From contig JBGAOA010000002.1 of the NCBI GenBank assembly GCA_044222065.1, positions 32,001 to 96,000 on the forward strand: a stretch of DNA of 64,000 nt. Direction: 5' to 3'. The stretch comes from Candidatus Eiseniibacteriota bacterium (GTDB taxonomy: Bacteria; Eisenbacteria; RBG-16-71-46). This document shows positions 46,023-64,000 of this stretch, one piece after another. Below the pieces are notes generated by a model. The model was not told the DNA's origin and did no database searches. It saw only the letters and a list, made by a program, of their open reading frames with translations. Made by a program: the position numbers and the translations under genes. Position 1 is the first letter of the stretch; each line of letters begins with the position of its first letter.

Positions 46023-47126
46023 ATGACGCCTACGACGCCTGCGGTCACGGAGCAGCCCCGGACGTTCACTCGAACGTCCACGATGAAGGCGGTCGTCAAG
46101 ACGACCGCCGGCCCCGGTCTCGAGATTCGCGACGTCCCGGTCCCCACGGTGGGGCCGGGACAAATTCTTTTGCGCGTGCTGCGCGCCGGGGTGTGCGGCA
46201 CGGACCTTCACATCTTCGAGTGGGACCAGTGGTCGCAGAGTCGCATCAAGCCGCCGGTCACCGTGGGACACGAATTCGTCGGAGAGATCGTCGAGATCGG
46301 CGCGAGCGTGACCGAGTTCAAGCTCGGCGAGCGCGTCTCGTGCGAGAGCCACATCGTGTGCGAGCACTGCATCGCGTGCCGCACCGGCAACGGCCACGTG
46401 TGCGAGAACACGAAGATCCTCGGCGTGGACGTGAACGGCGGCTGGGCCGAGTACGTCGCGGTGCCCGCGGCGAACGCGTGGCGCGCGCCGACGAACATCC
46501 CGATCGAAGTGCAGGGCATCATGGAGCCGCTCGGCAACGCGGTGCACACGGCGTTCGCGGGCGATCTGAGCGCGTGCCGCATCGCGGTCACGGGCTGCGG
46601 CCCGATCGGCCTGTTCGCCGTCGGCGTCGCGAAGGCGGCCGGCGCGGCTCAGGTCATCGCGAGCGACGTGTCGTCCTACCGGCTCGACCTCGCGAAGAAG
46701 ATGAACGCCGACGCCGTGATCGATCCGTCGAAGGAGAATTTCGTCGAGCGCGTGCGCGATCTGACGCAGGGCCGCATGCTCGACGGCGTGCTCGAGATGT
46801 CGGGCAACCCGGTCGCGATCCGCGACGGGCTCGCGGGGCTGCGCATGGGTGGGCGGCTGTCGCTGCTCGGACTCCCGCGCGAGCAGTTCGGGCTCGACTG
46901 GAACAAGCTGCTCATCTTCAAGGGCATCACGCTGCACGGCATCATCGGCCGCCGCATGTACCAGACGTGGTACCAGATGGACGGTCTGCTGCGCTCCGGC
47001 CGGCTCGACCTGAAGCCCGCGATCACGCACGTCATGCCGATGGAGAAGGTCGTGGACGCGATCGGGCTCCTGCGTTCCGGGCAGGCGGGCAAGGTCGTGC
47101 TCGTGCCGTGGGGGCAGAGCGCATGA
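46023..47126 (+). CDS. tdh: L-threonine 3-dehydrogenase (alternative starts 46014 or 46083)
   Basis: CGTDLHI, GHEFVG, structural Zn cysteines, EPLGNAVHT, GCGPIG, GRRMYQTW; near kbl. Confidence 0.93.
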   Translation: MTPTTPAVTEQPRTFTRTSTMKAVVKTTAGPGLEIRDVPVPTVGPGQILLRVLRAGVCGTDLHIFEWDQWSQSRIKPPVTVGHEFVGEIVEIGASVTEFKLGERVSCESHIVCEHCIACRTGNGHVCENTKILGVDVNGGWAEYVAVPAANAWRAPTNIPIEVQGIMEPLGNAVHTAFAGDLSACRIAVTGCGPIGLFAVGVAKAAGAAQVIASDVSSYRLDLAKKMNADAVIDPSKENFVERVRDLTQGRMLDGVLEMSGNPVAIRDGLAGLRMGGRLSLLGLPREQFGLDWNKLLIFKGITLHGIIGRRMYQTWYQMDGLLRSGRLDLKPAITHVMPMEKVVDAIGLLRSGQAGKVVLVPWGQSA

Positions 47127-47563
47127 ACGCGCGCGGCTGGGCGCTCGCGCTCGGCCTCGCGACGCTCGCGGGCTGCTCGGCGCCGTTCAAGGGCATGCCA
47201 CCGGCGCGGACGGCGGGGTCGGAGTTCGCGCGACCGACGGCTGGCTGTCCCGAGTCGACTCACGTCGCGCGAACCGATTCGCTGCTCGCGACCGCTCCGC
47301 TCGAAGAACCGGTGGTGCGGACGAAGGTGGATCCCGTGTACCCGAACATCGCGCGGGAAGCGGGAGTCGAGGGAGTCGTCGTCGTGCGCGCGCTCGTGTG
47401 CGAGCACGGGCGTGTCATCGAGACCCGGGTGCTGCGAGGTCCGCCGATGCTGAAGGACAACGCCGAGTCGGCCGTGAAGCTCTGGCGTTTCGACCCCGCC
47501 CGCTCGAACGACGCTCCGATCCCCGCATGGACCGAAGTGGAAGTGCCCTTCACGCTCCATTGA
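47123..47563 (+). CDS. Small lipoprotein carrying a TonB C-terminal domain
   Basis: Lipobox [32 protein letters not shown] overlap with tdh stop. Confidence 0.8.
47438..47467 (+). repeat. 30-bp exact repeat shared with tonB (32669-32698)
   Basis: ggtccgccgatgctgaaggacaacgccgag at both sites, encoding [10 protein letters not shown]. Confidence 0.9.
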
Positions 47564-51772: not shown

Positions 51773-53274
51773 AGCTCGAACGCCGGCTGCTGATCGAACA
51801 GGGCGGCGAGGGCCACCGCGGTCCCGAACTGCCGCCGTGCGACGTGCCGCAGCGCCCGCTCGCGGAACTGCTGCCGGGCGCGAAGCTGCGCGAGTCGCTC
51901 GCGTTCCCCGAGGTGAGCGAGCCCGAGGTCGTGCGCCACTTCCTCGAGCTTTCGACGTTGAATCACCACGTGGACAAGGGCTTCTACCCGCTCGGCTCGT
52001 GCACGATGAAGCACAATCCGAAGATCAACGACGAGATCGCATCGCTGCCCGGGTTCGCGCTTGCGCACCCGCTCGCGAGTGACGACGTGAGCCAGGGCGC
52101 GCTGCGCGTGATCTGGGAGCTGCAGAACGCGCTCGCCGCGATCACCGGTTTCGCCGCCGTGACGGCGCAGCCCGCCGCGGGCGCGCACGGCGAGATGACG
52201 GGGCTCATGCTGATCCGCGCGTGGCACCGCTCGCGCGGCGAGGGGGAGAAGCGCCGCCGCGTGCTCGTGCCCGATTCGGCGCACGGCACGAACCCGGCGA
52301 GCGTGAACCTGCTCGGCTGGGAGACGCAGACGGTCGCTTCCGACGAGCACGGCCACGTGAACCTGGACGCGCTCGAGCGTGCGCTCGACGACACGGTCGC
52401 CGCCGTCATGTTCACGGTGCCGAACACGCTCGGCGTGTTCGAGCGCGAGATCGTGGACGTGACCCGGCTCGCGCACGCGGCCGGCGCGCAGTGCTACATG
52501 GACGGCGCGAACCTGAACGCGCTCGTCGGCCTGCTGCGGCCGGGCGACCTCGGCTTCGACGTCATGCACATCAACGTGCACAAGACGTTCTCGACTCCGC
52601 ACGGCGGCGGCGGGCCCGGCGCCGGACCGGTCGCGGTCGCGAAGCACCTCGAGCCGTTCCTGCCGATCCCGGTCGTCGAGGAGTCCGGCGGTCTGCTGCG
52701 CCGCGTCTGGGACCGCGAGCGTTCGATCGGACGCGTGCACGGATGGCACGGCAACTTCGGCATCCTCGTGCGCGCGCTCGCCTACATCCTGTCGAACGGC
52801 GCGCCGGGGCTCGCGAACGTGAGCCGCACGGCGATCCTGAACGCGAACTACCTCATGCGGCGCCTCGCCGGGACTTACGAACTCCCGCACGCCGAACACT
52901 GCATGCACGAGTGCGTGCTGTCCGGGCGGCCGCTCAAGAAGCACGGCATCAAGACGCTCGACGTGGCGAAGCGGCTGCTCGACTTCGGCGTCCACGCGCC
53001 GACGGTGTACTTCCCGCTCATCGTGGAAGAGGCGCTCATGATCGAGCCGACCGAGACGGAGACGCTGGATCGGCTGGACCACTTCGCCGAGACGATGGAG
53101 CAGATCGCGCGCGAGGCCGCCGAGAATCCCCAGCTCCTCAAGGACGCGCCGCACACGACGCCGAACCGCCGGCTCGACGAGGGCCGCGCGGCGCGCGAGC
53201 TCAAGCTCCGCTGGAGCGCGGACGCCGCGCGCCCGAGCGGCAGCGCCGCGAACGCGGAACCGACGCTGAAGTGA
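51769..53274 (+). CDS. gcvPB: Glycine dehydrogenase subunit 2
   Basis: YPLGSCTMK, SAHGTNPAS, HKTFSTPHGGGGPG (PLP Lys), EPTETE. Confidence 0.96.
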   Translation: MKLERRLLIEQGGEGHRGPELPPCDVPQRPLAELLPGAKLRESLAFPEVSEPEVVRHFLELSTLNHHVDKGFYPLGSCTMKHNPKINDEIASLPGFALAHPLASDDVSQGALRVIWELQNALAAITGFAAVTAQPAAGAHGEMTGLMLIRAWHRSRGEGEKRRRVLVPDSAHGTNPASVNLLGWETQTVASDEHGHVNLDALERALDDTVAAVMFTVPNTLGVFEREIVDVTRLAHAAGAQCYMDGANLNALVGLLRPGDLGFDVMHINVHKTFSTPHGGGGPGAGPVAVAKHLEPFLPIPVVEESGGLLRRVWDRERSIGRVHGWHGNFGILVRALAYILSNGAPGLANVSRTAILNANYLMRRLAGTYELPHAEHCMHECVLSGRPLKKHGIKTLDVAKRLLDFGVHAPTVYFPLIVEEALMIEPTETETLDRLDHFAETMEQIAREAAENPQLLKDAPHTTPNRRLDEGRAARELKLRWSADAARPSGSAANAEPTLK

Positions 53275-53723
53275 AGGGCCCGGAAGTGGACGCCGGCGCA
53301 ACCGGGGCCGACGCCGCTCTCGAGTGGCGCGTCGTGCCGTGGCGCGAGCGCCCCGCGCGCGCCGCCGTCGGCGTGCTGCTCGCGGCCGGGTTGTGCGCGG
53401 CGGTCGCGTCGCAGCGGCTCGGATTCGTGCCGACGCTCGCGCTCTCCGTCGCGTCGGTCGCCGCCGTCGCGCCGCTGTTCGCTTCCGCGCGCTGCCGGAT
53501 CGACGGCGACGGGCCGGGCCGGCGCGGCGCGCTCGGCTGGGAGCGGCGCCGGTGGACGGACGTGCGCCGCGCGCGGCTCACCGCGCGCGCGCTCGTGCTC
53601 TCGCCCTACGCGCGCCCCCACTGGCTCGACGCCTACCGCGCGCTCGTGCTGCCGCTGCCCGCCGGCGCCGACGCGGGCTGGCGCGACCGGCTGCGCGCGA
53701 CGCTGGAGCGACATGGCCTCTGA
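53271..53723 (+). CDS. Hypothetical membrane protein (2 TM + small soluble domain)
   Basis: GTGA overlap with gcvPB stop; two hydrophobic segments; stop overlaps next start. Confidence 0.65.
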   Translation: MKGPEVDAGATGADAALEWRVVPWRERPARAAVGVLLAAGLCAAVASQRLGFVPTLALSVASVAAVAPLFASARCRIDGDGPGRRGALGWERRRWTDVRRARLTARALVLSPYARPHWLDAYRALVLPLPAGADAGWRDRLRATLERHGL

Positions 53724-54022
53724 CGCACGGACGCTCGCGGCCGACGACCGCGCGCTGATCGAGCGCGTGGCTGCCCGGATCGCGGAGCTGCGCCTCGAGG
53801 TGCCGGCGCTCCTCACGATCGAGAGCGGGCGCCCGCTGTCGCTGCTCGCGAGCCAGACGATGCTGTTCTTCGAGCCGATCGTGCTCGCGCTGCTCCGGCT
53901 CGACTACCGCTTCGCGCGCCTCGTCGAGGACCGTGGCGCGCTCGAGGCGCTGTCGTGCGCGATCGAGGCCGCCGTCGAGGCGCGAGGCGGCGCGGCGCGC
54001 CGCGCGGGGGGGACGGGCGTGA
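53713..54022 (+). CDS. Small hypothetical protein; as sequenced it reads in-frame into the GlmL-like gene
   Basis: LIERVA..I...RLEVPALL.IES.RPLS.LASQ..LFFEP; would end at TGA 54020-54022 if the G7 run at 54006-54012 were G6. Confidence 0.6.
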
Positions 54023-55830
54023 GCCTCGATCCGAACGCGATCCGCTCGATCCTCGCGACCGACTGCGGCTCGACGACGACCAAGGCGATCCTGATCGAGC
54101 GCGGCGACGACGGTTACCGTCTCGTCGTACGCGGCGAGGCGCCCACGACGGTCGAGGCCCCGCACGAGGACGTGACGCGCGGCGTGCTCAATGCGATTCG
54201 CGAGATCGAGGAGCTGGCGGGGCGGCGGATCCTCGACGGTGAGCGCATCGTGTCGCCCGCGAACGGCGACGTGGGCGTGGACCTGTACCTCTCGACCTCG
54301 AGCGCGGGCGGCGGGCTCCAGATGATGGTGTCGGGCCTCGTGCTGCAGATGACCGGCGAGAGCGCGCAGCGTGCCGCGCTCGGCGCCGGCGCGATCGTGA
54401 TGGACGTGATCGCCCTCAACGACGGCCGTCGGCCGCACGAGAAGATCCGCCGGCTGCGGCAGCTGCGTCCCGACATGATTCTCATGTCCGGCGGCACGGA
54501 CGGCGGCGACGTGAAGCGCGTGGCCGAGATGGCCGAACTGCTCGTGGCCGCCGATCCGCGCGCCCGGCTCGGCGCCGGCTACGAGATGCCCCTGATCTAC
54601 GCGGGCAACCGCGACGCCGCGCCGGTCGTGAGCGACAATCTCGCGCGCCGGACGGCGCTCAGCGTCGTGCCGAACCTGCGGCCGTCGCTCGAGCGCGAGA
54701 ACCTGAAGCCCGCGCGCGACGCGATCCACGACCTCTTCATGGAGCACGTGATGGCGCACGCGCCGGGCTACCGGCGGCTGCGCGAGTGGTCGCCCGTGCC
54801 GATCATGCCGACGCCGGGCGCGGTCGGCCTGCTGATCGAGAAGGTCGCGCGGCGCGACGGCCTCGCGGTCGTCGGCGTGGACATCGGCGGCGCGACGACG
54901 GACGTGTTCTCGGTGTTCCAGGGCGTGTTCAACCGCACGGTGTCCGCGAACCTCGGAATGAGCTACTCGGTGTCGAACGTCATGGCGGAGGCCGGCATCG
55001 AGAACATCCTGCGCTGGGTGCCGTTCGCCGTGGACGAGGCGGAACTGCGGAACCGGATCAAGAACAAGATGATCCGCCCGACGACGATCCCGCACACGCT
55101 CGAGGACCTCGTGATCGAGCAGGCGATCTCGCGCGAGGCGCTGCGACTCGCGCTCGAACAGCACAAGGCGCTCGCGGTCGGGCTCAAGGGCGTGCAGACC
55201 GAGCGCACGATCTCGGACATCGTGGCGCAGGAAGAGAGCGGCGCCTCGCTCGTGAACCTGCTCGACCTCGGGCTCGTCGTGGGTTCGGGCGGCGTGCTGT
55301 CGCACGCCCCGCGGCGGGCGCAGGCCGCGGCGATGATGGTGGACGCGTTCCTGCCCGAGGGGCTGACGCAGCTCGCCGTGGACAGCATCTTCATGATGCC
55401 GCAGCTCGGCGTGCTCTCGACCGTGCACGAGGAGGCGGCGGCGCAGGTGTTCGAGAAGGACTGCCTGATCCGGCTGGGCGCCGTGCTCGCGCCGATCGGG
55501 ACGTCGCGACCCGGCCAGCCGTGCGTGTCGGTCGAGGTCGCCGTGCCGGGGCACGTCGCGACCGAACGCAAGGTCGCGTTCGGCGAGATGGCGCTGCTGC
55601 CGCTGCCGCCGACCGGCACCGCGCGCGTCACCGCCGTGCCCGACCGCGCGTTCGACCTCGGTCTCGGGCGCGGTCGCCCGCTCACGGCCGACGTTCCGGG
55701 CGGCGTCGTCGGCCTGATCGTGGACGCCCGCGGCCGCCGGCCGTTCACGCTCCCGGACGCGCCCGCCGCGCGGATCGCGAAGCTGCGCGAGTGGAATCGC
55801 GCGCTCGGCCTCTACCCGCGGGAGGTGTGA
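54019..55830 (+). CDS. GlmL/MutL-like ('glutamate mutase L') ASKHA-fold ATPase
   Basis: Actin-like motifs ATDCGSTTTKA and VDIGGATTDVFS; SSAGGGL; GGTDGG; YAGN; GSGGVLSHAP; DARGR. Confidence 0.85.
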   Translation: MSLDPNAIRSILATDCGSTTTKAILIERGDDGYRLVVRGEAPTTVEAPHEDVTRGVLNAIREIEELAGRRILDGERIVSPANGDVGVDLYLSTSSAGGGLQMMVSGLVLQMTGESAQRAALGAGAIVMDVIALNDGRRPHEKIRRLRQLRPDMILMSGGTDGGDVKRVAEMAELLVAADPRARLGAGYEMPLIYAGNRDAAPVVSDNLARRTALSVVPNLRPSLERENLKPARDAIHDLFMEHVMAHAPGYRRLREWSPVPIMPTPGAVGLLIEKVARRDGLAVVGVDIGGATTDVFSVFQGVFNRTVSANLGMSYSVSNVMAEAGIENILRWVPFAVDEAELRNRIKNKMIRPTTIPHTLEDLVIEQAISREALRLALEQHKALAVGLKGVQTERTISDIVAQEESGASLVNLLDLGLVVGSGGVLSHAPRRAQAAAMMVDAFLPEGLTQLAVDSIFMMPQLGVLSTVHEEAAAQVFEKDCLIRLGAVLAPIGTSRPGQPCVSVEVAVPGHVATERKVAFGEMALLPLPPTGTARVTAVPDRAFDLGLGRGRPLTADVPGGVVGLIVDARGRRPFTLPDAPAARIAKLREWNRALGLYPREV

Positions 55831-55831
55831 C

Positions 55832-56956
55832 GTGTCCGCCACCTACACGCCGGGCCTGCGCGTCACCGCCTCCGCACTCCTGCGTCGCGAGCGGCGGCTG
55901 CCGCTCAAGGGCGAAGTCCTCGTGAGCGCGGGGCAGGGCGTCGAGGCCGGAACGGTCGTCGCGCGCACCGACCTGCCGGGCAACGTGCAGACGGTGAACC
56001 TCGCGTCGCGGTTGTCGCTGGATCCGGCACGCGTCGAGAGCGCGCTCACGAAGCGCGTCGGCGAGTCGGTGCGGAAGGGCGAGACGCTCGCGGAGTCGAA
56101 GAGCCTGTTCGGGCTCGTCAAGAACTCGGTCGCCGCTCCCGCGGACGGCGTCATCGAGAGCGCCTCGCACGTCACGGGGCAGCTGATCCTGCGCGAGCCG
56201 CCGATCCCGGTCGAGGTCAACGCCTACGTGCGCGGCGTCGTCGTCGAGGTGCTGCCCGGGGAAGGCGTCGTCGTCGAGACGCACGGCGCGTTCCTGCAGG
56301 GAATCTTCGGCGTGGGCGGCGAGGCGTGCGGCCCGGTGAAGATCGCGGTGGACGATCCCGGGACCGATCTCACCCCCGACCGCATCACCGGCGAGCACCG
56401 CGGCGCCGTCGTCGTCGGCGGCGCGAAGATCTCGTTCGACGCGATCGCACGCGCGCGCGACGTCGGCGCGGCCGCGATCGTCGCCGGCGGACTCGACGAT
56501 GCCGATCTCAAGCGGCTGCTCGGCCGCGACCTCGGCGTCGCGATCACCGGGTCCGAGGACCTGGGCGTGACCGTGATCGTCACCGAGGGCTTCGGCCGCA
56601 TCCCGATGGCGGCCCGCGCCTGGAAGCTGCTGCGCGGCTGCGAGGGCCGCGACGCGTCCGTGAGCGGCGCGACGCAGATCCGAGCGGGCGTGATGCGCCC
56701 CGAGCTCGTGATTCCGGATCCGGCCACGAGCGCGCCCTCGGGCGAGACGGACGCGATCCCGGGCCTCGCGATCGGCGCCCAGCTGCGCGTCATCCGCGAG
56801 CCGTACTTCGGGCGAATCGGCACGGTCGTCGCGCTGCCGGCGGAGCTCCAGCCGCTCGAGACGGAGGCGCACGTGCGCGTGCTCGTGGTGGAGTTCGCCG
56901 ACGGCGGCGGCCGCGTCGTCGTGCCGCGGGCGAACGTCGAACTCATCTCGTCGTGA
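55832..56956 (+). CDS. Conserved hypothetical protein with biotinyl/lipoyl-like hybrid motifs and KOW-like C-terminus
   Basis: VSAGQGVEAGTVVA and VGESVRKGETLA..AAPADGVI half-motifs; QGIFGVGGE; TEGFG; IGAQLRVIREPYFGRIGTV. Confidence 0.75.
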   Translation: MSATYTPGLRVTASALLRRERRLPLKGEVLVSAGQGVEAGTVVARTDLPGNVQTVNLASRLSLDPARVESALTKRVGESVRKGETLAESKSLFGLVKNSVAAPADGVIESASHVTGQLILREPPIPVEVNAYVRGVVVEVLPGEGVVVETHGAFLQGIFGVGGEACGPVKIAVDDPGTDLTPDRITGEHRGAVVVGGAKISFDAIARARDVGAAAIVAGGLDDADLKRLLGRDLGVAITGSEDLGVTVIVTEGFGRIPMAARAWKLLRGCEGRDASVSGATQIRAGVMRPELVIPDPATSAPSGETDAIPGLAIGAQLRVIREPYFGRIGTVVALPAELQPLETEAHVRVLVVEFADGGGRVVVPRANVELISS

Positions 56957-56979
56957 GCGCCGCGGCGGACGCATTGTCG

Positions 56980-57009
56980 TTGACTTCGATTCCGAGCGGT
57001 TGCTAGCTT
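56980..57009 (+). promoter_or_regulatory. Putative sigma70 promoter for the four-membrane-protein unit
   Basis: TTGACT-N18-TAGCTT with TG extension. Confidence 0.5.
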
Positions 57010-57083
57010 CGCCGCGATTCGCGCGGTCGCAAAGGAGTGCGGACGGGGCCTCGGCCCCGGAAAGTGAGGTGCCGTTGCGAGGG

Positions 57084-58313
57084 ATGGCGACGCGAAGGCC
57101 CGTCGGCCGCTGCATCCTCGCCGTGCTCGCGGCCGTCGTCGCGACGTGCGCCGCGGGTCCCGTCGGCGCCGAGGAGGCCCCGCCCGACGGCGGTGCGTTC
57201 TCTCCCGCACCCGCGGTCGCCGATACGACCCCCGCCGCTCCGCGCCCGGCCTCGGGACTCGTCGCGACCGACGTGCCGAACGACGCAGGCCGCGGCATCG
57301 CGCTGCGCTGGCGGCTCTCGCCGGACGACTCGCTCGGGCTGGTCGTGCGCTACGACGTCGAGCGCTCGGAGGCGCCGAGCGGCCCGTGGGCGCTCGTGGA
57401 CTCGGTGGACGCCGGCGCGAACGAGCGCGTGGACCAGTCGGTGCGGCGGAACACGGAGTACTTCTATCGCATCACGACGATCGGTCCCGGCGGGCGCGCG
57501 CCCGGACGCAGCGTGACTGGGCCCGTTCGCGCGCGCTCGTCCTGGATCAACACGACGCGCTGGAGCGTTCTCGCCCTGATGGTCGCGTTCTTCGCCTTCG
57601 TCCTCTACTACATCGCGAGCGCCCAGGCGGGGAAGAAGCCGTTCGTGCGGCGCATTCCCGGAGTGGACGCGATCGAGGAGGCGATCGGGCGCGCGACCGA
57701 GATGGGGCGCCCGGTGCTCTACGTGCCGGGCATCCTCGACATCGACGACATCCAGACCGTCGCGGGCCTCGTCATCCTGGAGTCGGTCGCGCGGCTCACG
57801 GCCAAGTACGAGACCCCGATCACCGTGCCCGTCAGCTACCCGATCCCGTTCACGATCGCCGAAGAGATGGTGAAGGGCGGCTACCTGCACGCGGGCCGTC
57901 CCGACGCGTATCCGGGCGACAGCGTACGCTTCGTCTCGCCGGAGCAGTTCGCGTACGTCGCCGCCGTCACGGGCATCATGCTGCGCGACCGTCCCGCCGC
58001 CCACATCTTCATGGGTGCGTTCTACGGCGAGTCCCTGATGCTCGCCGAGACCGGGTTCTCGACCGGCGCGATCCAGGTCGCGGGCACCGCGAACGTTCAC
58101 CAGCTGCCGTTCTTCGTCGTGGCCTGCGACTACACGCTCATCGGCGAAGAGCTGTTCGCCGCGAGCGCGTACCTGTCGGGCGAGCCTAAGCTCGTCGGCG
58201 GCCTCAAGGGCGCCGACCTCATGAAGCTCGTCGTCATCGCCATCATCGTCATCGGCTGCATCCTCGAGACGCTGCACGTCCACGGTCTCACGACGTGGAT
58301 GGCGACCCAGTAG
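57084..58313 (+). CDS. Exported FN3-like domain + TM + conserved domain (recalled as DUF6754); start uncertain (57069-57084)
   Basis: Signal peptide, DVPND.G..I.L.W..Y.VERS..Y.YRI FN3-like pattern, TM, RRIPG.DAIEEAIGRATEMGRP, DYTLIGEELFAASAYLS. Confidence 0.75.
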   Translation: MATRRPVGRCILAVLAAVVATCAAGPVGAEEAPPDGGAFSPAPAVADTTPAAPRPASGLVATDVPNDAGRGIALRWRLSPDDSLGLVVRYDVERSEAPSGPWALVDSVDAGANERVDQSVRRNTEYFYRITTIGPGGRAPGRSVTGPVRARSSWINTTRWSVLALMVAFFAFVLYYIASAQAGKKPFVRRIPGVDAIEEAIGRATEMGRPVLYVPGILDIDDIQTVAGLVILESVARLTAKYETPITVPVSYPIPFTIAEEMVKGGYLHAGRPDAYPGDSVRFVSPEQFAYVAAVTGIMLRDRPAAHIFMGAFYGESLMLAETGFSTGAIQVAGTANVHQLPFFVVACDYTLIGEELFAASAYLSGEPKLVGGLKGADLMKLVVIAIIVIGCILETLHVHGLTTWMATQ

Positions 58314-58323
58314 GAGCGCGCGC

Positions 58324-58974
58324 GTGAAACGGGAAGTGCCGCTGTTCATCACCGCCGTGATCGGGCTGTTCATGATCCTGTCGTTCTTCGTGCCGCACGA
58401 GTGGGTGAGCGTGCCCGCGGACTTCCTGCAGCTGTGCGCGGTGATCGCGGTCGCGTTCGGCTACGTGCTCGGCGGCGCGAACGTGCTGCGCGTGAACTTC
58501 GACGGCATCTCGAAGCGCGAGCCCGGCTGGCCCTTCAAGCTCGTGCTCGTGCTCGCGCTCCTCACGACGGTCGCGGTCGGTGCGATGGAGGGCGAGGGGT
58601 TCCTGAATCCCGGCACGCGCAGCAAGTGGATCTACGACAACGTCTATTCGCCGATGAGCGCGACGATGTTCGCGCTGCTCGCGTTCTTCATCGCCTCGGC
58701 CGCGTTCCGCGCGTTCCGCATCCGCACGCTCGAGGCCGGCTTCCTCGCCGCGGCCGCGCTGATCGTGATGCTGGGGCGCGTGCCGATCGGGAACGTCATG
58801 ACGTCGTGGCTGCCCGAGCCGCTGCGGCTCCCCGTCGTGCAGGAGTGGATCATGGAGATCCCGCAGAACGCCTCGAAGCGCGCGATCCTCATGGGCGCGG
58901 CGCTCGGCGTCATGGCGACGGGGCTGCGCGTGATCCTCGGCATCGAGCGTTCCTACCTGAGCGGGGAGGACTGA
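58324..58974 (+). CDS. Hypothetical multi-pass membrane protein
   Basis: About 6 hydrophobic segments; TMFALLAFFIASAAFRAFR; LRVILGIERSYL. Confidence 0.8.
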   Translation: MKREVPLFITAVIGLFMILSFFVPHEWVSVPADFLQLCAVIAVAFGYVLGGANVLRVNFDGISKREPGWPFKLVLVLALLTTVAVGAMEGEGFLNPGTRSKWIYDNVYSPMSATMFALLAFFIASAAFRAFRIRTLEAGFLAAAALIVMLGRVPIGNVMTSWLPEPLRLPVVQEWIMEIPQNASKRAILMGAALGVMATGLRVILGIERSYLSGED

Positions 58975-58975
58975 C

Positions 58976-59818
58976 GTGAAGCTGCTGCACTCGCTCGAGC
59001 GCGTGGACCGGCGCTGGCTGTTCCTGCTGATGGGACTGCTCGTACTGCTGCCGCTGCTCTTCCCGCTCAGCCTGCCGATCTTCGTCTCGCAGCCGACGCA
59101 GGGCTTCTACGACGCGATCGCGAAGATCCCCGACGGCTCCACGGTGCTGTTCTCGTGCGACTACGATCCCGGCTCGATCCCCGAGATGGTGCCGATGACG
59201 CGCTCGGCGCTGCGCCAGATGATGCGCAAACGCTGCAAGCTCGTCGTCACGGTGCTGTGGCCCGGCGGGCCGGGGCTCGTGGACCTCGTGATCCGCGACC
59301 TGCTCGCCGAGGAGTTCCCGGACCGGACGTACGGCGTGGACTGGGTGAACCTCGGCTACAAGTCGGGCAACGAGGCCGTGATGGTGCTCATGGGGCAGGG
59401 CATCGCGAACGCGTTCCCGAAGGACTACCGCGGCAACGACGTCAACGCGCTGCCGCTCATGCGCACGGTGCGCGACTACTCGAGCTTCCCGATCCTCGTG
59501 AACATCTCGTCGGGCTACCCGGGCACGAAGGAGTGGGTCCAGCAGGTGCAGGCGCGATTCCACCTGCCGATGGTCGCGGGCGTCACCGCCGTGAGCGCGC
59601 CGGAGTTCTATCCGTACCTCCAGTCGGGCCAGCTGCTCGGACTGCTCGGCGGCATGGCGGGCGCGGCCGAGTACGAGAAGCTCGTGGGCGACCTGCCCGG
59701 CCCCGGCACGGCGCAGCGCGGCATGGACGCGCAGTCGCTCGCGCACGTGTTCGTGGCGCTCTGCATCCTGCTCGGCAACGTCGTTCAGTGGTCGAGGCGG
59801 CGGGGGGCCGGCTCGTGA
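58976..59818 (+). CDS. Hypothetical membrane-anchored protein (N- and C-terminal TM, central alpha/beta domain)
   Basis: DYDPGS.PE, DWVNLGYK.G, YPYLQSGQ..GLLGG..GAAEYE, MDAQS.AH. Confidence 0.8.
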   Translation: MKLLHSLERVDRRWLFLLMGLLVLLPLLFPLSLPIFVSQPTQGFYDAIAKIPDGSTVLFSCDYDPGSIPEMVPMTRSALRQMMRKRCKLVVTVLWPGGPGLVDLVIRDLLAEEFPDRTYGVDWVNLGYKSGNEAVMVLMGQGIANAFPKDYRGNDVNALPLMRTVRDYSSFPILVNISSGYPGTKEWVQQVQARFHLPMVAGVTAVSAPEFYPYLQSGQLLGLLGGMAGAAEYEKLVGDLPGPGTAQRGMDAQSLAHVFVALCILLGNVVQWSRRRGAGS

Positions 59819-60501
59819 GTCTGCACGTCTCGGCCGACCTCGGCATCTGGTGCGGCGCGCTGCTGACGCTGTGCGTGTTCAGCTTCCTCTACAAGGACAA
59901 TCCGCTCTACAAATTCGCCGAGCACCTGTTCGTGGGCGTGTCGGCCGGCTACTACATCATCCTGAACTTCTGGACCGTGATCTGGCCGAACCTGCTGCAG
60001 CCGCTCGCAAGGTCGTTCGCGGGCCGCGGCGACACGGCGCGCACGGGCATGTTCGCCGCCGAACTCGGCGACTACCGCGGACTGCTGCTCGTGCCGGCGC
60101 TGCTCGGACTGCTGCTGCTCACGCGGCTGTTCGGGAAGATCGGGTGGCTCTCGCGCTGGTCGCTCGCCGTCATCATCGGCGTGTACGCCGGCATCAAGAC
60201 GACGGGCTTCGCGCAGGGCGACTTCGTCGCGCAGCTGCAGGCGAGCCTGCAGCCGCTCTGGACCGGACAGCTCGGCTCGAGCGTGAGCGCGATCCTGTTC
60301 ACGATCGGGCTCATCACGTCGCTGCTGTTCTTCTTCTTCAGCCGCGAGCACCGGGGCGGCCTCGGCGTGCTGTCGCGCGTCGGCATGCTGTTCCTCATGG
60401 TGGGCTTCGGCGCGGGGTACGGCTACACCGTGATGTCGCGGGTGTCGCTGCTGATCGGCCGGTTCCAGTTCCTGATCGAGCAGTGGCTCGGCCTGCGCTG
60501 A
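59815..60501 (+). CDS. Hypothetical multi-pass membrane protein
   Basis: GTGA overlap; FSFLYKDNPLYKFAEHLFVG; FFFFSREH; FLMVGFGA.YG.TVMSR.SLLIGR. Confidence 0.8.
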   Translation: MSLHVSADLGIWCGALLTLCVFSFLYKDNPLYKFAEHLFVGVSAGYYIILNFWTVIWPNLLQPLARSFAGRGDTARTGMFAAELGDYRGLLLVPALLGLLLLTRLFGKIGWLSRWSLAVIIGVYAGIKTTGFAQGDFVAQLQASLQPLWTGQLGSSVSAILFTIGLITSLLFFFFSREHRGGLGVLSRVGMLFLMVGFGAGYGYTVMSRVSLLIGRFQFLIEQWLGLR

Positions 60502-60532
60502 GCGCGGGCGCCGTACCGCCGGGGCGGACGCC

Positions 60533-61279
60533 GTGCTGAACCTGTGGTGCGACGACGGCCACCCGGCGCGCGAGAACATGCGCCGCGACGCGGCGCTGCT
60601 CGCGGCGGCCGAGGACGGCGCGGCGCCGGTGCTGCGGCTCTTCCGCTTCGATCCGCCGGGCCTCACGCTCGGGCACGCGCAGGACCCCGCGGCCGAACTC
60701 GACCTCGAGGCGTGCGAGCGCGACGGCGTCGAGTGGGCCGTCCGCCCGACGGGCGGGCGCGCGATCTTCCACGAGCACGAGTGGACGTACGCGTTCGCGT
60801 CCGCCGCCGACGACCCGGAGTGGGGCGGCGACCTCGCGGTCGCGTACGAGAAGGTGTCGCGGCTCGTGCGCGACTCGCTCGCGGATCTCGGCGTGCCGGT
60901 CGCGTTCGCGGGCGGACATCGCGGGCGGCTCGAAGGCGACCGCGCGAGCGCGGCCTGCTTCGCCTCGACCGCGCGCCACGAACTCGTCGTCGCGGGGCGC
61001 AAGCTCGCCGGGAGCGCGCAGCGACGGACGAGCCGCGCGTACCTGCAGCAGGGCAGCGTGCTGCTCGGCCCGGGGCACCTGCGGCTCGCGGAATTCCTGG
61101 CGCTGCCCGACGCGCGACGGGCAGCGGCGCGCGATGCGCTCGCGCGGTCGGCCACGGACGCCGGGGCGTGGATCCCGCCGGCGACGCCGCTCGGGCGCTG
61201 GGCCGATGCGATCGAGCGCGTGCGGCCCGGCGTTCATCGCGAGAACGGCGACGCCGGCCGACGGTGGTTGACCCTGTGA
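60533..61279 (+). CDS. Lipoate-protein ligase / octanoyltransferase (LplA/LipM family, catalytic domain only)
   Basis: NM..D.ALL, RPTGGRAIFH, CF, GRKLAGSAQ, LQQGS. Confidence 0.88.
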   Translation: MLNLWCDDGHPARENMRRDAALLAAAEDGAAPVLRLFRFDPPGLTLGHAQDPAAELDLEACERDGVEWAVRPTGGRAIFHEHEWTYAFASAADDPEWGGDLAVAYEKVSRLVRDSLADLGVPVAFAGGHRGRLEGDRASAACFASTARHELVVAGRKLAGSAQRRTSRAYLQQGSVLLGPGHLRLAEFLALPDARRAAARDALARSATDAGAWIPPATPLGRWADAIERVRPGVHRENGDAGRRWLTL

Positions 61280-63177: not shown

Positions 63178-64000
63178 ATGCGCACGTTCGTCCTGCGCCG
63201 TGTCCTCCAGGTCGTACCCCTGCTGTTCGGACTCACCGCGATCACCTTCCTGCTCGTCGCGCTCGCGCCCGGTGACTTCCTGAACACGCTCGCCGAGAAC
63301 CCGGCGATCACGCCGCAGGTGCTCGAGTCCATGCGCCGCAATTTCGGTCTCGACCGGCCGGTGTGGGTGCAGTACGGGCTCTACCTGTGGAATCTGCTGC
63401 ACGGCGACTTCGGTCAGTCGTTCTCGCGTCACCAGCCGGTGTTCGCGGTGCTGCGCGAGGGGCTCGCGAATACGCTGCTGCTCGCGGGCGCGGCCGCGAT
63501 CGTGACGTGGGGGCTCGCGATCCCGCTCGGAGTGATCGCCGCCGTGCGGCAGAACACGGTCGTGGACCGCTCGCTCGGCGTTCTCGCCTACGTCTGGCTG
63601 TCCGTGCCCGAGGTCCTGTCCGGGCTGCTGCTGCTGTTGTTCGCGGCGCGAACCGGCTGGTTCCCGACCGGCGGCATGCACTCGCTCGACTTCGAGCGGC
63701 TCGGGCCGCTCGCGCGCGCGGGGGACCTGCTCCACCATCTCGCGCTGCCGGCGATCGCCGTGGGGCTCGTGCCGCTCGCGAGCCGCATGCGCCAAACGCG
63801 CGCGAACCTGCTCGACGTGCTGCTCGACTACGTGACGACGGCGCGCGCGAAGGGGCTCGATGAGCGGACCGTGGTCGTCAGCACGCGCTCCGCAACGCGC
63901 TCAACCCGCTCGTCACGATGTTCGGGTTCACGCTCGGCTCGCTCGTCTCGGGTTCGCTCGTCGCCGAGATCGTGTTCTCGTGGCCCGGCCTCGGTCGCAT
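63178..64000 (+). CDS. Peptide ABC permease DppB/OppB-type; runs off the window; frameshift at ~63880
   Basis: FVLRR, GLDRP..QY, GDFGQS, TARAKG, then [16 protein letters not shown] in a shifted frame. Confidence 0.88.

Follow-up and report, generated by a model that had tools for sequence, protein, structure and literature searches.

A 64,000-nucleotide stretch of the genome of a Candidatus Eiseniibacteriota bacterium (contig JBGAOA010000002.1, positions 32,001 to 96,000; hereafter the window) carries eight genes that form one conserved system. They lie 3' of the glycine-cleavage genes gcvT-gcvH-gcvPA-gcvPB and comprise two small genes, A and B, an ATPase of the GlmL/MutL type, its partner Hyb, and a membrane module composed of a DUF6754 protein, M2, M3 and M4; a lipoate-ligase-family gene follows as the ninth open reading frame (ORF). 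The eight-gene system is real, conserved and apparently undescribed, which supports a sequence-only reading that had proposed a membrane machine of several subunits, not described before and with an ATPase resembling GlmL, at this place. Functional coupling of the ATPase-Hyb pair to the membrane modules is very likely, and the whole may be an ATP-driven importer of a new kind, a reading from sequence comparisons to which we give about an even chance.

The genes are inherited together. Across 121 evenly sampled genomes of the phylum, which are related and not independent, the ATPase family PF13941 and DUF6754 are each detected in 109; both are present in 108 genomes, both are missing from 11, spread over six families, and two genomes, G007 and G107, are discordant. 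The two markers thus agree in 119 of the 121, which answers in the affirmative the question of co-occurrence raised by the sequence-only reading. G007, in which the ATPase occurs without DUF6754, is an assembly of 250 contigs at 88% completeness, and we do not count it as a real exception. The string from A to M4 is whole in the close relatives whose loci were fetched, gene A accompanies the ATPase pair within this phylum, and of 73 module loci 68 show DUF6754-M2-M3-M4 in full and in this order, the remaining five being cut off at a contig edge.

The main point of the architecture, which the sequence-only reading missed, is that a genome with a single ATPase pair can have as many as nine DUF6754 matches. 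The source genome has one ATPase and one DUF6754, whereas other families of the phylum have up to nine DUF6754 matches and one or two ATPases. In Zixibacteria, the phylum of genome G041, both markers occur in all 61 genomes searched, 59 of which have a single ATPase match; their DUF6754 matches, which are not exact module counts because a few are tandem genes within one module, number five in 43 genomes, four in 9, six in 5, three in 3 and two in 1. Since one ATPase stands against several DUF6754 copies, the ATPase looks like a shared energiser. Named records also indicate the system in Fidelibacterota, Cloacimonetes, Armatimonadetes, Myxococcota and Planctomycetota, and a search of a plasmid collection gave no match to Hyb or DUF6754. 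At two loci (L295:7542-9318 and L296:9887-11561) a tandem pair of DUF6754 genes precedes a single M2-M3-M4 set, and there may be two DUF6754 chains per complex.

The ATPase matches the Pfam family MutL (PF13941) over residues 11-482 with 417 bits (cut-off 27), in agreement with the GlmL/MutL-type ASKHA protein of about 600 residues described in the sequence-only reading, and about 120 residues extend beyond this match at the C-terminus. The motifs DCGSTTTK, DIGGATTD and GSGG, which we take to be phosphate-1, phosphate-2 and adenosine, are invariant in 57 aligned sequences with a mean column identity of 74%. Scores against the profiles NF040745 (GlmL; 217, cut-off 475), NF040744 (Or-4; 207, cut-off 600) and TIGR01319 (159, cut-off 204) all stay below their cut-offs.

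Hyb had been called a hybrid-motif protein; by sequence its hybrid-motif matches are weak (expectation values, E, of 0.008-0.055), and the description is supported by a structure model with a pLDDT (predicted local distance difference test) of 88. The model has three domains, namely a barrel-sandwich hybrid (about residues 49-123; structural matches to RnfC, Z 7.7, and NqrA, Z 7.2), a swivelling beta/beta/alpha domain (about 135-299), and a KOW/SH3 domain (about 308-374; structural match to Spt5, Z 8.6). The top structural match of the swivelling domain is the phosphohistidine domain of enzyme I of the phosphotransferase system (PTS; Z 9.0, root-mean-square deviation (rmsd) 3.0, 110 aligned), tied with RraA (Z 8.9) and followed by rifampin phosphotransferase (Z 8.2). 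The DDR-type swivelling domain PF18427 gives no match on Hyb and is also absent from the 50 structural matches listed, and Foldseek returns NusG alone at E 0.001 or better. A sequence search against solved structures gave no match for the ATPase and one chance-level match for Hyb. In 74 aligned rows, the aspartates D222, D223, D225 and D233 are 96-99% conserved, and there is no conserved histidine in the swivelling domain, H3 (93%) and H189 (74%) being the only candidates. Nor is there a conserved lipoyl or biotinyl lysine at the tip of the hybrid hairpin (K90 64%, K26 72%), where F93-G94 is conserved.

ATPase and Hyb are also found as one protein. A second ATPase type, which coexists with the standard type in several families, has a Hyb match in nine of ten loci fetched, the tenth stopping at a contig edge, and all six of the ATPase-Hyb genes that were translated are single ORFs of 855-1011 amino acids (aa). 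At loci L124, L125, L128, L129, L131 and L133 the Hyb-like portion joined to this ATPase lacks the KOW domain, and the genes lie away from modules; the aspartate cluster is not retained in most fused paralogs. In four metagenome loci (L241, L243, L250 and L260) gene B stands in one string between two ATPase and two Hyb paralogs, which gives a hint that the motor may be dimeric.

In the membrane module, the DUF6754 protein scores 374 bits against its family profile, and M2, M3 and M4 match no family. Hydropathy gives 2, 6, 2 and at least 4 segments for DUF6754, M2, M3 and M4, so that the membrane proteins of the sequence-only reading are confirmed as four. Positions inside and outside the membrane are all predicted, from hydropathy and the positive-inside rule. 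The DUF6754 protein has a likely signal peptide, a fibronectin-III (FN3)-like domain, a membrane helix, a predicted cytoplasmic domain (181-378) and a C-terminal membrane helix. The near-invariant motif GRATEMG lies at 202-208, and GRxTE[ML]G is retained in 167 of 169 locus sequences. M2 has both ends predicted inside, and all 39 longer homologs found carry their insertion near 89-97, in a predicted outside loop. M3 holds a Rossmann/flavodoxin-like alpha/beta domain between its membrane helices (model pLDDT 95); 5316 clusters at 50% identity match it, yet it belongs to no Pfam family. Its best structural match, at Z 10.2 and rmsd 3.4 with 140 aligned, is MT0777, a Rossmann-like protein of generic type whose function is unknown; its matches to solute-binding proteins (Z 7.6-8.2) are tied with those to dehydrogenases and RCK domains. 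Foldseek finds nothing for M3 at E 0.001 or better. The sequence search against solved structures likewise finds nothing for M3 and matches only the FN3 part of DUF6754, while the ESM Atlas holds no usable match to the DUF6754 domain and only unnamed clusters for M3.

Two database proteins, P0328 and P0347, are natural fusions with M4 behind M3, and large variable domains (FN3, CARDB, HEAT and TPR) are inserted at predicted outside positions, including in M2 and in the M3 domain. Inspection by eye had suggested that M3 is homologous to DUF6754 and that M2 and M4 form an inverted duplication; hhalign does not support this, with probabilities of 2.4% and 0.3%, and retests gave P 0.039 over 128 columns when rows were added and P 0.078 when the M3 alignment was deepened. 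The signals of internal repeats in M4 and M2 are weak as well (P 0.03-0.1).

A genome that has lost the ATPase points to the surface at which the two parts may meet. G107 (98% complete, 20 contigs) has no ATPase or Hyb match and keeps the module on a 1.16-Mb contig in the order gcvPB-B-DUF6754-M2-M3-M4-ligase (L285, G107:C10:68000-87900); A is gone from the locus and the promoter region of the module is lost. The four membrane ORFs are intact, as is B, the stop codon of which overlaps the DUF6754 start. At columns at least 95% conserved among the window and 47 ATPase-linked kin loci (loci with less than 55% identity to the window or with broken genes were excluded), G107 is changed at 28 of 133 positions in DUF6754, 14 of 92 in M2, 0 of 89 in M3 and 3 of 92 in M4. 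The leave-one-out background for the other loci has a median of about 1% and a maximum of 6%, and Fisher's test of DUF6754 against M3 plus M4 gives P 7e-9, with columns treated as independent. By hand count, 27 of the 28 DUF6754 changes are in the predicted cytoplasmic domain, where GRATEMG has become ARAAARR, and about 11 of the 14 M2 changes are on the predicted inner face. Since DUF6754 and M2 are eroded at inner-face sites and M3 and M4 are spared, a coupling surface is indicated, and the pattern can be read as the loss of a motor-docking surface with the outward half still under selection. A second ATPase-less lineage was not found; among 119 other best homologs listed, 118 keep a GRATE[ML]G-type motif and one has it partly changed.

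In the importer reading, the ATPase and Hyb would be one cytoplasmic motor unit, and four-protein modules of several kinds, interchangeable with one another, would each offer it a docking place on their inner face. The cytoplasmic domain of DUF6754, with its GRATEMG helix, would make up the docking surface together with M2 at its inner ends; M3 and M4, as the outward half, would meet the substrate and would still be serviceable without the motor. ATP hydrolysis would move the module and transport would be directed inward, with amino acids or small peptides as possible solutes, and A and B would likely be accessory anchor or adaptor parts. Co-inheritance, the fixed order, one ATPase for many modules, intact motifs, the two fusions and the erosion in G107 favour this reading, as do the domains inserted outside and the recurring peptidase, aminotransferase and amino-acid symporter neighbours. 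Such an importer may represent a new class of primary active transporter, in which one actin-fold motor would serve as many as about nine exchangeable sets of four proteins, with the GRATEMG helix as coupler, and a module could survive its motor as a passive carrier, a proposal for and against which the scales seem to us balanced.

The substrate is the weakest step. The neighbour scan covered 138 proteins beside scattered modules, taken from 171 candidates and a few picked by eye, and found peptidases (three each of M29, M16 and TldD/PmbA, as well as M28, S11 and S66), amidases (2), enolase-superfamily epimerase-like proteins (2), class I/II aminotransferases (8) and SDF symporters (5). Because the scan has no background control and many neighbours recur in a single lineage, the uptake of amino acids or peptides is a lead and not a result, and we regard it as doubtful. 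In Zixibacteria, a module at L113 and L117 lies among an amidase, an enolase-superfamily epimerase-like gene, LD-/DD-carboxypeptidases, DUF1611 and an ABC (ATP-binding cassette) transporter, a neighbourhood that looks like peptidoglycan recycling. At L169, L177, L178, L192 and L200 an SDF-family symporter, itself preceded by a nucleotidyltransferase, stands directly before the module, often with an aminotransferase after the module. In the source genome, an oligopeptide-type ABC binding protein is encoded downstream, behind its own promoter-like site.

Several points weigh against the importer reading. The erosion comes from one genome without a close relative, in a genus that holds two genomes, and the topology of the membrane proteins from hydropathy and the positive-inside rule only. 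A known transporter fold was not found in the structure comparison, which covered the M3 and Hyb models. The neighbourhood is mixed: nucleotidyltransferases (11), S1 proteins (3), TPR proteins, Met-tRNA synthetase and methyltransferases occur no less often than the peptidase, aminotransferase and symporter families, beside many proteins without a family. In several metagenome loci the genes are scattered among housekeeping genes, and the steady five copies in Zixibacteria are also compatible with a structural or housekeeping role.

These last points suit an ATP-driven envelope machine with the same docking, which would act in export, in lipid or glycan handling, in membrane remodelling or in the relay of signals from outside sensors to the cytoplasmic ATPase. 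All the coupling evidence fits it equally, it agrees with the presence of the system in every Zixibacteria genome searched and with the housekeeping neighbourhoods, and there are precedents in PilM, FtsA and MreB, actin-fold proteins that bind membrane partners. On the other hand, the clean absence from 11 of 121 genomes means that the system is not essential, the variation from 1 to 9 matches between families is that of substrate-specific modules, and M3 and M4 are conserved without the motor; we consider such a machine rather unlikely. Group translocation or substrate activation, in which the ATPase would act as a kinase, an aspartate of the Hyb swivel would carry the phosphoryl group and the modules would modify the entering solute as in the PTS, is improbable. 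The structural likeness of the Hyb middle domain to PTS enzyme I and rifampin phosphotransferase speaks for it, together with the conserved aspartates and a match of the ATPase to Hydantoinase_A (PF01968), the family of 5-oxoprolinase and hydantoinase A, which covers 40 residues only and at 22.4 bits is under the cut-off of 22.9. The mannose-family PTS likewise runs many four-gene permease modules on one cytoplasmic energiser. Its energiser, however, is a phosphoenolpyruvate enzyme and not an ATPase, and the present proteins have no PTS family matches in Pfam or NCBIfam; the tie with RraA makes the enzyme I likeness one of common fold only, the swivelling domain has no conserved histidine, and the aspartate cluster is missing from most fused paralogs.

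Two further explanations would detach the membrane module from the ATPase or bind the system to its neighbours. The ATPase could be a chaperone that reactivates some B12 enzyme whose gene lies elsewhere, with the membrane genes as unrelated neighbours. It does belong to PF13941, with the nucleotide-binding motifs intact as in GlmL/MutL and Or-4, an accessory protein of ornithine degradation, and the source genome has two large subunits of the methylmalonyl-CoA-mutase family. Yet its scores are far under the GlmL and Or-4 cut-offs, and it differs from both in the extra C-terminal residues, the pairing or fusion with Hyb and the co-inheritance with a membrane module. Moreover, GlmE is over its cut-off in 0 of 121 genomes (glmE is also missing from G000, which is 94% complete), the lysine-aminomutase family (PF09043) is detected in 0 of 121, a negative that is unvalidated as no control genome gave a match, methylmalonyl-CoA mutase is present in 5 of 5 ATPase-less genomes examined, and DUF6754 erodes once the ATPase is lost. 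The large subunit of diol/glycerol dehydratase reactivase combines an ASKHA ATPase with a swivelling domain, the same two fold types as in the ATPase and Hyb; the present pair differs in lacking a PF18427 match, in its added hybrid and KOW domains and in its membrane-module partner. A figure legend (Fig 4, PMC4682846) presents GlmL/MutL as a chaperone that reactivates glutamate mutase, and a second paper (PMC5167688) concerns a true glutamate mutase and has no bearing on the present system. The reactivase explanation is close to refuted, and the sequence-only reading was right to set it aside.

That reading had also tied the system specifically to threonine/glycine catabolism. An energy-coupling or transport complex dedicated to threonine and glycine, and working with GcvH and the lipoate ligase, would agree with the arrangement within this phylum, where A-B-ATPase-Hyb usually lies 3' of gcvT-gcvH(-gcvP) with overlapping start and stop codons. 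A specific tie is not supported: gcv persists without the system, as 10 of the 11 genomes with neither marker have GcvH, and many relatives keep the system without gcvPA/PB at the locus. The Zixibacteria loci read show the system among housekeeping genes with no gcv linkage. In 22 long metagenome loci around Hyb, the ATPase is found in 15, DUF6754 in 15, the ligase in 3 and a gcv match in 8 (one weak), which leaves 14 without linkage. The module also has its own promoter, and Hyb has no conserved lipoyl lysine. As a general rule the glycine tie is largely refuted, and a dedicated complex is very improbable; inside the phylum, where the linkage is wide, shared regulation with gcv is possible. 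The lipoate ligase of the sequence-only reading stands as a PF21948 family gene but not as a component. Among system-less genomes, gcvH adjoins it in G082, G084 and G061 (one genus) and gcvPB does in G038 and G088, so its place is with gcv, and the eight genes are lost together as one unit. In G074 (L284:6437-6778), a separate loss, an N-terminal remnant of the DUF6754 gene alone remains between gcvH and the ligase. At L007, L018, L043, L055, L068 and others, gcvT-gcvH is followed directly by gene A, with no gcvPA/PB at the locus.

An analogy in manner of working, and in that only, is with the group II energy-coupling factor (ECF) transporters, in which a shared EcfA/A'/T module serves many S components. 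Here too there is, by gene counts, one energiser for many dispersed modules, and the substrate-side half is conserved without the motor. The differences are an actin-fold ATPase in place of an ABC ATPase and a multiplied unit of four genes that includes the likely coupling subunit. None of the eight proteins matches ABC_tran in Pfam, and EcfT, S-component and ABC permease families are without a match in Pfam and NCBIfam. A search of the literature on DUF6754, PF13941, TIGR01319, NF040745 and PF20539, with most subscription journals and supplements outside its coverage, gave no account of the system.

The features of the locus are listed in Table 1. All ORFs placed here by the sequence-only reading are confirmed on the + strand, with a GC content at third codon positions of 0.93-0.97; they number nine and not eight. 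Their spacing in 53271..61279 is -11 to +31 nucleotides (nt), except for a 127-nt gap upstream of DUF6754. For the soluble C-terminal part of gene A, one homolog gives a weak bacterial PH-domain hint (E 0.028).

Table 1. Positions of the system and its neighbouring gene in the window
Feature	Position	Strand	Description
Gene A	53271..53723	+	150 aa; membrane helices 30-48 and 53-71; soluble C-terminal part
Gene B	53713..54022 (end approximate)	+	about 105 aa, soluble, no family
ATPase	54019..55830	+	603 aa, GlmL/MutL-type ASKHA (actin-fold)
Hyb (ATPase partner)	55832..56956	+	374 aa, three domains
Promoter, sigma-70-type, conserved	56980..57009	+	TTGACT, 18 nt, TAGCTT with TG before; precedes the membrane module
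DUF6754 protein	57084..58313	+	409 aa; start codon chosen in this analysis
M2	58324..58974	+	216 aa, six membrane helices (hydropathy)
M3	58976..59818	+	280 aa, helix / predicted outside alpha/beta domain / helix
M4	59815..60501	+	228 aa, polytopic membrane protein, no family
Lipoate-ligase/octanoyltransferase-family gene	60533..61279	+	PF21948; neighbour, outside the system

In the present assembly, gene B has no in-frame stop and forms a single ORF of 705 aa with the ATPase (53713-55830). A stop separates the two in all 15 relatives checked, and a contig from a public run of the same organism (one contig, depth 5.9) has 8 additional bases at four places within B, so that the TGA at 54020-54022 comes into frame and the GTGA overlap is restored. 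Together these speak against the fusion as a genuine feature. It is probably an assembly error with bases missing in B, and the two separate genes of the sequence-only reading are very probably the biological state. The G7 run at 54006-54012 was rejected as the site of the error, because a contig across the run shows no gap. A further indel error is likely at 63178-63999, where an oligopeptide-type permease matches PF00528 only at 1-99 of 184 residues and continues in an off-frame-like tail.

A strict promoter scan missed the site upstream of DUF6754. The pattern TTGAC-N16-18-TAnnnT nevertheless occurs in 45 of 49 orthologous gaps, against a mean of 0.5 in shuffled sequences and 0 of 49 in coding controls, which substantiates the putative promoter of the sequence-only reading. 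The stretch is contained in public runs from activated sludge, bioreactors, wastewater and biofilm. One metatranscriptome has contigs of 164-352 nt with 0-2 differences over Hyb, DUF6754, M2, M3 and M4, which have no silent-stretch control and are not used as evidence. Elsewhere in the window, a small ORF at 47119-47563 lies between tdh-like and kbl-like genes; it has no Pfam match at 1e-4, is not found at this place in the relatives mapped, and presumably resembles a TonB C-terminal lipoprotein.

The system is common where little has been cultured, in about 90% of the sampled genomes of the phylum and in 61 of 61 Zixibacteria searched, and more than 5000 protein clusters that match M3 are without a Pfam family. 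By its Pfam or GlmL label the ATPase could be taken as a sign of a B12 glutamate pathway, which is missing from these genomes. The changes in G107 name residues for mutation, which makes the claim of coupling directly testable. Primary active transport of small solutes is known from a few ATPase classes, such as ABC, P-type and rotary, and we know of no case in which an actin-fold ATPase drives a permease. If the importer reading is true, an actin-fold ATPase, rather than one of these classes, would power primary active transport.

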